From Nitrospirota bacterium (lineage in GTDB: Bacteria > Nitrospirota > UBA9217): DNA of 64,000 nt. The number at the start of each line of letters is the position of its first letter. Within the stretch, counting starts at the first letter, position 1. Shown here piece by piece: positions 6,663-7,294 of this stretch. The stretch spans positions 32,001 through 96,000 of the forward strand of contig CAVUCU010000004.1 of the NCBI GenBank assembly GCA_963740085.1, written 5' to 3'. The position numbers were made by a program, and so were the translations under genes. The notes under the pieces were generated by a model that did not search any database, was not told the origin of the DNA, and was given only the letters and a program-made list of their open reading frames with translations.

Positions 6663-6739
6663 GCGCCCGTAGCTCAGCTGGATAGAGCGTCGGACTTCGA
6701 ATCCGCAGGCCGCAGGTTCGACTCCTGCCGGGCGCACCA
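6663..6739 (+). tRNA. tRNA-Arg(TCG)
   Basis: CGGA-CT TCG AA-TCCG; acceptor GCGCCCG/CGGGCGC; CCA. Confidence 0.95.
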
Positions 6740-6798
6740 GAATCACCTTGCAAGATCAGCACCCGGCAAAGAACGAGAAGGGAACTGCTTTCCTGCGG

Positions 6799-6921
6799 CC
6801 AGAGGGGTGCAGGGGAGATGCTCCGCTGCGGTTCGGGGGAGAAACCAGAGGGGGCAGGCCTCCTCTGGGGAGCCCTTCATGGGCGACGGCTGCACGGTTC
6901 GACTCCTGCCGGGCGCACCAG
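6799..6921 (+). repeat. tRNA-linked structured module copy 1 plus duplicated 3' end of tRNA-Arg(TCG)
   Basis: 6832-6889 matches 7209-7266 at 56/58 nt; 6896-6921 is identical to 6715-6740. Confidence 0.9.
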
Positions 6922-7034
6922 GATACCGCAAAGGAACAAACGACGGACGAGAGACGAGGGATGAGAGACGCATGCGCGTCCATCGTCCTAGCGCGCAAAG
7001 AGAGCGGTCGTCTATCGTCCAGCGAGTTTTTATC

Positions 7035-7111
7035 GCGCCTGTAGCTCAGCTGGATAGAGCGTTGGCCTCCGAAGCCAAAGGTCGTGGGTCCGACTCCCGC
7101 CAGGCGCACCA
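7035..7111 (+). tRNA. tRNA-Arg(CCG) with atypical T-loop (TCCGACT)
   Basis: TTGGC-CT CCG AA-GCCAA; acceptor GCGCCTG/CAGGCGC; CCA. Confidence 0.9.
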
Positions 7112-7175
7112 GTTTAATAATCAATGACAGGCAATATGCGCGGCAAAATGGGTCGGCGAAATAGAGGGTCCACGA

Positions 7176-7294
7176 CCTGAGGGTTTCAGGGGAAGCATTC
7201 CCCTGAGTTTCGGGGGAGAAACCAGAGGGGGCAGGCCCCCTTTGGGGAGCCCTTCATGGGCGACGGAGTGGGTCCGACTCCCGCCAGGCGCACC
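7176..7294 (+). repeat. tRNA-linked structured module copy 2 plus duplicated 3' end of tRNA-Arg(CCG)
   Basis: Same 58-nt core as copy 1; 7268-7294 is identical to 7084-7110. Confidence 0.9.

Follow-up and report, generated by a model that had tools for sequence, protein, structure and literature searches.

The RtT RNA (Rfam RF00391), encoded in the tyrT-tyrV locus of Escherichia coli, is known from enterobacteria only and, to our knowledge, no function for it has gained acceptance in the decades since it was described. In its Rfam consensus the strand GgGaaGGAU closes on AUCCuuCcC, which is copied from the 3′ end of tRNA-Tyr, with CCACCA remaining unpaired. A preprint relates rtT RNA, encoded by rttR, to the processing of the tyrT transcript and likely to the stringent response, its mode of action being unknown (10.1101/2024.07.17.603846). 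Here we analysed a stretch of 64,000 nucleotides (nt) from a Nitrospirota bacterium (assembly GCA_963740085.1, contig CAVUCU010000004.1, positions 32,001 to 96,000; the window), in which two transfer RNA (tRNA) genes, tRNA-Arg(TCG) and tRNA-Arg(CCG), are each followed by a folded module, about 130-165 bases in length, whose first part is antisense to its host tRNA and whose last part copies the host's tail. Judged by sequence comparison, the two modules are members of a Nitrospirota-wide family of tRNA-trailing structured non-coding RNA modules. The members share one plan, in which hairpin A, a G-rich linker, hairpin B and hairpin C form a domain between a 5′ host-antisense segment and a 3′ sense copy ending NCC(A).

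The repeated tRNA ends had been noticed in an initial annotation of this DNA, and its description of them is accurate: 6715-6740 recurs at 6896-6921 (26 nt) and 7084-7110 at 7268-7294 (27 nt), with spacings of 181 and 184. The core that it reported as common to both units (6832-6889 and 7209-7266) is identical at 56 of 58 nt, and both differences (6861 T/C and 6865 C/T) sit in the 3′ strand of the CCAGAGGGGG hairpin, where G-C becomes G-U. The CAGGGGA..TCCxCTG and GCCC-TTCAT-GGGC hairpins are present in both units as well (Table 1). Overlooked at that time was a 9-nt antisense segment at the 5′ side of each module, exactly complementary to the variable loop and T-stem 5′ strand of the module's own tRNA and detected by the repeat finder (I1, I2). 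The finding is real and more general than the initial annotation held. The exact part of the first copy, 6896-6921, consists of the T loop, the T-stem 3′ strand, the acceptor 3′ strand, A and CCA; a single extra C lies at 6895 within its degenerate T-stem 5′ strand. This first copy finishes with CCA and the second with CC only. According to the repeat finder the two units are tandem paralogues over about 375 nt, with identities of 83% in the tRNA and leader (D4), 85% in the module (D3) and 79% in the downstream motif (D5). The window modules share a B-C core and a TTCAT loop that are absent from all other rows of alignment A2, and their hairpins A stay type-specific; partial conversion between the two copies has taken place in places.

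A BLAST search with 7112-7294 matched 31 of 61 related genomes, including 27 of the 36 from the window's own taxonomic family, and 25 of the 26 BLAST matches within the loci inspected lie behind a tRNA-Arg (anticodons TCT, TCG, CCG and ACG). The distance from the tRNA is 38-86 nt in 24 modules, one more is the second copy of a tandem, and the 26th match is partial and has no tRNA in its locus. Most related modules are found in the same Pro-Arg-His-Arg-Arg-Lys-Leu cluster, and which tRNA-Arg serves as host differs between genomes. Scanning one genome per species for an exact pattern yielded 84 loci, with a full module in 24 as judged by nhmmer; the other 60 were dismissed as chance matches in G+C-rich genomes. 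By record title, 20 of these 24 full modules belong to Nitrospirota, Nitrospirae, Nitrospiria or Nitrospiraceae and three to one Betaproteobacteria record, one title not being shown. Those three (L080, L082 and L083, from Betaproteobacteria bacterium MAG281) are typical Nitrospiraceae Arg-linked modules, and the label or the binning of MAG281 may be wrong.

A covariance model, R1, was built from 23 modules. Within the window's family it matched 56 of 64 genomes at E<=1e-3, the weakest of these matches including plain tRNA genes; at the stricter E<=3e-7 the number was 46. When genomes were sampled across the phylum, 22 of 27 from this family and 4 of 18 from a second family gave a match; single candidate matches occurred in four further families, and beyond the window's family the module was read in the second family only. 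The Arg-linked form, hereafter class 1, accounts for about 38 R1 matches above 84 bits. A shorter relative, class 2, scores 25-69 bits and is located behind tRNA-Leu(CAA), tRNA-Leu(TAA), tRNA-Ala(GGC) and tRNA-Ala(CGC); its description is based on those weaker matches that were opened, 13 loci of which include the tRNA. At four further class 2 loci the module is preceded by a 3′ fragment of a tRNA or by foreign DNA, as would be seen next to an integrated island. The order of elements in class 2 is the tRNA, a short spacer, a terminator-like hairpin with a T run, an antisense arm ending GAAC, hairpin A, CUUCGGGGGAG, hairpin B, GAAGCGAAGCGCGUGAGAUU, and a copy of the T-stem 3′ strand, the acceptor 3′ strand and NCCA. 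Class 2 commonly forms two or three identical units in tandem with periods near 162-167 nt. In the arrays L173, L175, L183 and L184 the last unit is truncated: the terminator, the antisense arm and part of hairpin A stay while hairpin B and the tail copy are missing, and it is always the 5′ part that is retained. Five loci were read in the second family, with modules behind tRNA-Gly(CCC), tRNA-Ser(GGA) and tRNA-Ser(CGA). A function specific to arginine tRNAs was rejected, since the weaker R1 matches are relatives behind Leu, Ala, Gly and Ser tRNAs. In the second family, a small signal recognition particle (SRP) RNA gene was found with 71.2 bits within about 70 nt after the tRNA-Ser(GGA) module (L190, 734-833), and by eye the same sequence is present in L193; small SRP RNA is a substrate of RNase P.

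In its own genome the module is rare. BLAST located the whole 94-nt module at only two places in 3,456,751 bases, no 16-mer of the core occurs elsewhere in the window, and R1 gave three matches: the two Arg-linked modules and, at a fragment of a tRNA-Ala gene, one relative. Among the 44 tRNA and transfer-messenger RNA (tmRNA) genes of the genome, a downstream copy of the gene's own 3′ end is found behind these two tRNA-Arg genes only; in an apparent third case, at a tRNA-Ser, the supposed copy is the neighbouring tRNA-Ser gene. The initial annotation had considered a common repetitive extragenic palindromic (REP) sequence residing mostly away from tRNAs. A dispersed repeat of this kind, or of the bacterial interspersed mosaic element type, was rejected because the two BLAST copies and three model matches are all at tRNA genes or a tRNA fragment. 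No relevant known RNA family was found in Rfam 15, either in window positions 5800-8200 at E<=10 or in related loci at E<=1; matches to Clostridiales-2 (19-22 bits vs 58.6) were taken as chance. A coding function was likewise discarded, as indels and compensatory changes ignore any reading frame and an ATG occurs in the arm of L006 only. The relative at the tRNA-Ala fragment (locus L177, G000:C4:315361-356237) lies outside the window and has a setting of its own. There, on the minus strand at about 315,400-315,570, tRNA-Ala(GGC) is represented by its 3′ half only, beginning at the anticodon loop and followed by a terminator, a class 2 module and its tail copy. An intact tRNA-Ala(GGC) lies at 356,162-356,237, 40.6 kb from the fragment, and TGTGCTAAAA motifs are repeated at the edge. 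This arrangement is the signature of an island of about 40 kb inserted in the anticodon loop of tRNA-Ala(GGC).

The evidence for a conserved RNA structure comes from comparison of the modules. Hairpins A, B and C were all recovered by RNAalifold, 96.0% of 1500 cells pair, and compensatory changes were observed in 23 of 27 pairs. The covariation score of 0.319 exceeds that of column shuffles (0.123; 0 of 500 reach it) and falls to <=0.073 when the partners are slid by 1-3 columns. The alignment of 90 matches (64 distinct sequences) was guided by the model, which favours the structure, but pair types such as UA, AU, GC and CG at single positions of hairpin A are no product of the alignment. Wobble cells (G-U or U-G) number 87 against 13 of A-C or C-A, so the strand that folds is that of the tRNA. 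Between genomes, the core of modules that share an anticodon is 86% identical (148 pairs), compared with 45% for the spacer (138 pairs) and 40% for the downstream flank (148 pairs; the 60 nt after the module), and 40-45% is about what this aligner returns for unrelated sequence. The TCG-linked modules have their own variant of hairpin A and constitute a supported clade across genera (9 rows at 97/90, or 11 rows, one of them TCT-linked, at 95/91, with one TCG row outside), and the TCT, CCG and ACG types are not resolved in the module tree. Modules of different type within one locus are 0.84 identical (6 pairs) vs 0.83 across genomes (441 pairs). The modules are accordingly old, vertically inherited and constrained sequences. 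An alternative pairing was noted for the hairpin A 3′ strand (CUCCxCUG or UUCCCCUG), which can pair with the invariant downstream CGGGGGAG (6821-6841; 7198-7218), and for the TCG type RNAalifold picks this pairing. Within the module there are five G runs, each four or five long, against only two runs of C. A GGA loop of the CsrA type in hairpin A was rejected because the loop varies between members.

The tail copy follows its host. In 35 Arg-linked modules the last 24 nt are identical to the host in 25, differ at one position in six and are decayed in four (4, 5, 6 and 12 mismatches, the last being due to an indel). In 34 of the 35 the tail is nearer to its own host than to hosts of the same anticodon with other tails, T-loop positions and discriminator included, so that the initial observation of such tracking in the window applies to the whole family. 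On the 5′ side of the T loop, one extra base stands two positions before the loop in 21 of 35 copies and in all four host types; eight of the remaining copies equal the host, four differ otherwise and two could not be scored. That the edge of identity coincides with the inserted base fits gene conversion between direct repeats that stops there. Changes mirrored at T-loop positions that do not pair with the tRNA body likewise indicate gene conversion rather than selection for pairing. In L004 (1852-1948) ARAGORN calls a 97-nt 'tRNA-Ala(GGC)' inside a TCG-linked module, a false call due to the T-arm copy.

The antisense arm also matches the host. The longest exact run antisense to the 3′ half of the host has a median of 9 nt in 36 class 1 units and 12 nt in 11 class 2 units, compared with about 5 in shuffles, and its end lies 5-14 nt upstream of hairpin A in 44 of the 47 units. 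In class 1 the arm covers approximately tRNA positions 43-56 (variable loop, T-stem 5′ strand and GUUC), and in class 2 positions 51-69 (T loop, T-stem 3′ strand and part of the acceptor strand). Pairing energies were compared after nine of the 47 units, in which the tail copy was not exactly locatable, had been dropped. The arm pairs with its host at -28.4 vs -18.5 kcal/mol for shuffled arms in class 1 (z -2.89; 24 of 29 units) and at -32.9 vs -17.9 kcal/mol in class 2 (z -4.06; 9 of 9 units). Matched changes exist within types: arms with GGCC or GACA accompany TCG hosts whose variable loop has GGCC or UGUC, and in L017 CCUGGCCC accompanies GGGCCAGG. In the TCG type the strand 6759-6768 pairs with 6907-6916 in the minimum free energy (MFE) fold and closes the module in single-sequence and consensus folds, and YCGGCA of this outer strand is kept in 9-10 of 11 TCG-type modules. 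In the TCT, CCG and ACG types an outer acceptor-like helix was rejected, being no better than shuffles. For TCT types the helix proposed by RNAalifold instead joins CCUGA in the arm to UCAGG in the acceptor strand, possibly a coincidence of the sequence of that tRNA.

By a slight balance of probability, we regard the modules as co-transcribed, structured RNAs that mimic a tRNA end and have an RtT-like build. A module would be transcribed together with its tRNA, no terminator being present between the two in the window units. Because its 3′ end is a tRNA 3′ end, it would then be excised by the enzymes that mature tRNAs, through 3′ trimming to CCA and, where an acceptor-like closing helix is formed as in the TCG type, through RNase P. 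The product would persist as a CCA-ended RNA of about 125-165 nt, in which the conserved A-B-C domain would do the work, probably by protein or RNA binding via its invariant, single-stranded G-rich stretches. The sense copy would be held equal to its host by gene conversion between the direct repeats, with the one-base T-stem insertion as the 5′ limit of conversion. The arm would be kept complementary to the host tRNA and, in the unprocessed precursor, could be a competitor of the T arm of that tRNA. A hint that tRNA and module are co-transcribed comes from RNA-library contigs of relatives. Contig X1 (322 nt) extends over 6663-6961 and begins one base before the tRNA 5′ end, X6 covers 6791-6920 of the first module, and X2 (128 nt) covers 7181-7294 of the second. 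Twenty-four runs were searched by word shares and four by contigs; the best share of the window stretch in any run was 0.14, and low shares and uncovered parts carry no weight. Literature searches found no paper on tRNA-trailing modules in Nitrospira, and in one study small RNAs had been removed before sequencing (PMC6606698). Of the two readings in the initial annotation, a structured RNA released with a tRNA-like 3′ end fits best, in view of covariation, G-U bias, conservation, TCG descent and the RtT-like build; for the release there is the hint from the metatranscriptome contigs only.

Several observations weigh against this interpretation. Neither the ends of an RNA nor its strand or abundance can be read from the contigs, and RNA libraries may be contaminated with DNA. 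The Leu/Ala form has a hairpin resembling an intrinsic terminator between tRNA and module, and as no promoter of the module's own was predicted in the window spacers or in L178, these modules may arise only by read-through; by eye, TTGACC in the tRNA-Ala terminators suits a -35 element in that host only. The pairing of the arm with its own tail copy is near the shuffled level (class 1 z -0.48, 5 of 29 units; class 2 z -1.08, 2 of 9), so the arm pairs with the host and hardly with its own copy, and a closing helix of the RtT type appears weak here. The outer acceptor-like helix beats shuffles (p<=0.05) in 9 of 36 class 1 units, mostly of the TCG type, and processing by RNase P is therefore not generally predicted. 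The RtT model (gathering threshold 45 bits) has no match in 5800-8200 of the window at E<=10 or in L174, L178, L179, L189 and L190 at E<=1. Finally, the modules are often lost, the window's genome having two that are Arg-linked and one at a tRNA-Ala fragment, and are therefore dispensable.

The sequence organisation also recalls mobile DNA, and the main rival reading, conceivable if unlikely, is that the modules are miniature integrase-less site-specific integrative elements or a domesticated relic of such elements. A circle of about 160-185 nt, carrying the tRNA 3′ end, spacer, arm and hairpins (and the terminator in the Leu/Ala form), would recombine in or next to the T loop; the incoming copy would complete the tRNA, the displaced original 3′ end would become the downstream copy, and the hairpins would act either as sites for the recombinase or, folded in single-stranded DNA, as the attachment site. 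Integrases that target the T loop cross over at the T loop or the T-stem end, which is where the block of identity begins. The order of tRNA, spacer, terminator where present, antisense arm, hairpins, tail copy and again terminator where present is as insertion would give; the tandem arrays of identical class 2 units and the occurrence of one core behind tRNAs for five or more amino acids, with arms matching the host in every case, are also in favour, and this spread requires some copying mechanism. In congener G006 there are clean empty sites, the sequence after tRNA-Arg(TCG) and tRNA-Arg(CCG) continuing as that of the window does after the tail copies. Clean loss is, however, equally expected from recombination of the 26-nt direct repeats, and neither excision nor such recombination fits the TCG site of G001, where spacer, outer strand and antisense arm are kept and core and tail copy are lost by a deletion that is not bounded by repeats (in G003 only the start of the spacer is kept). 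An integrative element also has to be reconciled with the absence of the module from mobile replicons: the core pattern retrieved 30 loci from viral contigs with a module in none (best 8.6 bits, E 0.34), and BLASTN at the 'distant' setting gave no match in 72,556 plasmid and 50,697 phage records. The partner elements carrying an integrase or HUH gene and the same end, envisaged in the initial annotation, were not present in the 30 viral candidate loci or in the plasmid or phage records, and a genome-wide recombinase search was not made. No open reading frame-bearing DNA or accompanying protein gene lies between the direct repeats, and tRNA genes flank them on either side. Recent spread is not apparent, paralogues within a locus being as diverged as orthologues and the TCG lineage vertical. 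Compensatory changes with a G-U bias suit an RNA better than duplex protein sites, and the arm matches host positions 44-52, which would be host DNA in that model, better than the element's own copy. The empty sites and arrays leave some room for the minimal tRNA-targeting element of the initial annotation, against which stands the lack of an integrase or HUH partner, of phage, plasmid or viral copies and of recent spread. Given the vertical TCG lineage, the lack of recent similarity among paralogues and the deletion in G001, we read the modules as resident features that are often lost. Neutral debris, that is, functionless partial tRNA duplicates from tandem duplication that gene conversion keeps alike, would be in line with the tandem paralogy of the window units and with a hairpin A sequence that resembles a T arm; it is made very improbable indeed by core conservation across genera against near-random flanks, by the compensatory changes, and by the same core behind unrelated tRNAs in two families.

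A cis-acting device within the precursor is quite improbable in our estimation. The arm would invade the proximal T arm and the distal tail copy would complete the tRNA by strand exchange, so as to control or proof-read tRNA maturation, with the A-B-C domain sensing a signal or recruiting a nuclease. Such a device would make sense of an arm that is complementary to the host tRNA and not to its own copy, of the matched changes within types, and of a tail copy that mirrors changes in the host acceptor strand. In MFE folds of tRNA plus module, moreover, the partner of the tRNA 5′ strand is the distal tail copy in 36 of 37 units, both window units included, with a mean advantage of 10.3 kcal/mol for the distal form (z = -3.97 for the CCG unit). 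Shuffling of the arm region leaves the distal form ahead in all 37 units, by a mean of 6.8 kcal/mol, so the preference is mostly generic, with roughly a third due to the arm and more in class 2; the energy model also ignores co-transcriptional folding and tertiary contacts of the tRNA. A strand-exchange role is possible, and the predicted precursor folds are no evidence for it. In the Leu/Ala form a terminator precedes the arm, the mirrored T-loop changes that are unpaired with the tRNA body point to gene conversion, and the extra T-stem base in most copies would be odd in a replacement T arm.

The positions of the features in the window are collected in Table 1. All tRNA genes of the cluster were called by ARAGORN, and Arg(TCG) and Arg(CCG) are those that carry modules.

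Table 1. Features of the tRNA cluster and of the two modules, in window coordinates.
Feature	Position	Strand	Basis or remark
tRNA-Pro(TGG)	6124-6200	+	ARAGORN
tRNA-Arg(TCT)	6279-6355	+	ARAGORN
tRNA-His	6525-6600	+	ARAGORN
Host tRNA-Arg(TCG)	6663-6739	+	ARAGORN; Rfam tRNA, 71.3 bits
Candidate outer closing strand P0, GCACCCGGCA	6759-6768	+	Antisense to T-stem 3′ strand and acceptor 3′ strand
Antisense segment CCTGCGGCC	6792-6800	+	Complement of host 6708-6716 (variable loop and T-stem 5′ strand)
Hairpin A, TCG-type variant (CAGGGGA..TCCxCTG)	6808-6830	+	RNAalifold; compensatory changes in 10/10 pairs
G-rich conserved linker GTTCGGGGGAGAAA	6831-6844	+	Alternative partner: hairpin A 3′ strand
Hairpin B, 10 bp, CAGG loop	6845-6868	+	8/10 pairs compensatory, many G-U
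Hairpin C (GCCC-TTCAT-GGGC)	6872-6884	+	RNAalifold, covariation
Copy of Arg(TCG) 3′ part	6890-6921	+	Degenerate variable loop/T-stem 5′ strand, then exact 6896-6921
Host tRNA-Arg(CCG)	7035-7111	+	ARAGORN; Rfam tRNA
Candidate outer closing strand TGCGCGGC, weak	7137-7144	+	MFE fold; duplex p=0.015
Antisense segment CCACGACCT	7170-7178	+	Complement of host 7079-7087
Hairpin A of Arg(CCG) unit	7185-7207	+	RNAalifold, covariation
Conserved G-rich linker of Arg(CCG) unit	7208-7221	+	Alignment
Hairpin B of Arg(CCG) unit	7222-7245	+	RNAalifold, covariation
Hairpin C of Arg(CCG) unit	7249-7261	+	RNAalifold, covariation
Copy of Arg(CCG) T arm, acceptor 3′ strand, A, CC	7268-7294	+	Exact; without inserted base
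tRNA-Lys(CTT)	7476-7551	+	ARAGORN
tRNA-Leu(TAG)	7633-7715	+	ARAGORN

After each module (6930-7034 and 7300-7403) a long imperfect hairpin with GACGAG and CGTC motifs is followed by a T run (repeat family D5), and D5-related sequence lies directly 3′ of the tRNA at the empty sites of G006. The D5 hairpins are possibly terminators or processing sites of the tRNA cluster. Promoter-like sites were observed ahead of tRNA-Pro and of tRNA-His (6055-6083 and 6450-6478), and tRNA-His is followed by a 12-bp terminator (6611-6639). TTGCAT-17-TATAAT before tRNA-Lys (7404-7432) was seen by eye and is absent from the list of the promoter scan. No promoter was found for either tRNA-Arg unit; the units begin 24 nt past the tRNA-His terminator.

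The Nitrospirota modules would provide a second, unrelated family with an RtT-like build, under purifying selection across two families of the phylum and with many tRNA hosts. That unrelated families share one build and conserve it argues that the architecture itself is selected. A broader idea, which we find rather improbable, is that RtT is one case of widespread and repeatedly arising tRNA-templated modules, in which the arm and the spare 3′ end act as a strand-exchange device or as a guide for self-insertion. If true, a strand-exchange device would allow a tRNA body to be completed, checked or mended by means of a second 3′ half, and an insertion guide would explain the host-matched arms at so many different tRNAs. 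The family supplies comparative data, in the form of covariation, host-matched arms and presence or absence, for asking what such modules do. Nitrospira are key nitrifiers of which cultured strains exist, and the module RNA can hence be tested. For annotation, the modules are a warning that duplicated tRNA 3′ ends need not mark islands, and also that real islands may adjoin modules, as at tRNA-Ala in the window's genome.

Among known systems, tmRNA and other tRNA-like RNAs resemble the module in that a T arm, an acceptor 3′ strand and CCA end a larger structured RNA. Unlike tmRNA, the module has no tag reading frame, and its acceptor 5′ strand is absent or weak; an identity as tmRNA was rejected, since ARAGORN finds the real tmRNA of the genome elsewhere and none in the window. 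The attL and attR sites of tyrosine-integrase elements and integrase-less cis-mobilizable elements (CIMEs) likewise have a direct repeat of the tRNA 3′ end from the T loop, an intact tRNA upstream with the displaced copy downstream, clean empty sites in a relative, and tandem accretion. They differ in that only about 100-155 nt separate the module repeats, with no gene between them and no integrase nearby, and in that the modules are conserved across two families with covariation of the RNA type and possess an arm that has no att counterpart. The closest likeness is to RtT. With R1 the E. coli locus scores <=7.1 bits, and there is no detectable homology in either direction. The arm of the module reaches parts of the tRNA that are absent or degenerate in the tail copy (44-56 or 52-69) and fits the host better, and many tRNA species host Nitrospirota modules whereas RtT is confined to tRNA-Tyr. 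The RtT model recovers four units in tyrT-tyrV of K-12 at 133-137 bits, each with a 19-nt tail and a 10-nt antisense run; 10 nt is also the maximum of 200 shuffles, so this run alone is not significant and the evidence is the Rfam structure. Just after the antisense run, the RtT unit of L196 (E. coli K-12 1286300-1287900) has a degenerate sense copy of the 5′ part of the tRNA-Tyr T arm (CTTCGACCAAGGTTCGA), and with sense and antisense pieces side by side RtT looks like a mosaic of tRNA-derived pieces. Like the module, RtT lies directly behind a tRNA gene on the same strand, as a unit of about 130-180 nt with internal hairpins that can be in tandem (four Rfam matches in K-12), contains an antisense run, in E. 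coli the 10 nt GGGGAAGGAT to the T loop and T-stem 3′ strand, and finishes with a copy of the 3′ end of the tRNA that begins in the T loop and includes CCA (19 nt in E. coli). In its build RtT thus resembles the Nitrospirota module, above all that of class 2.

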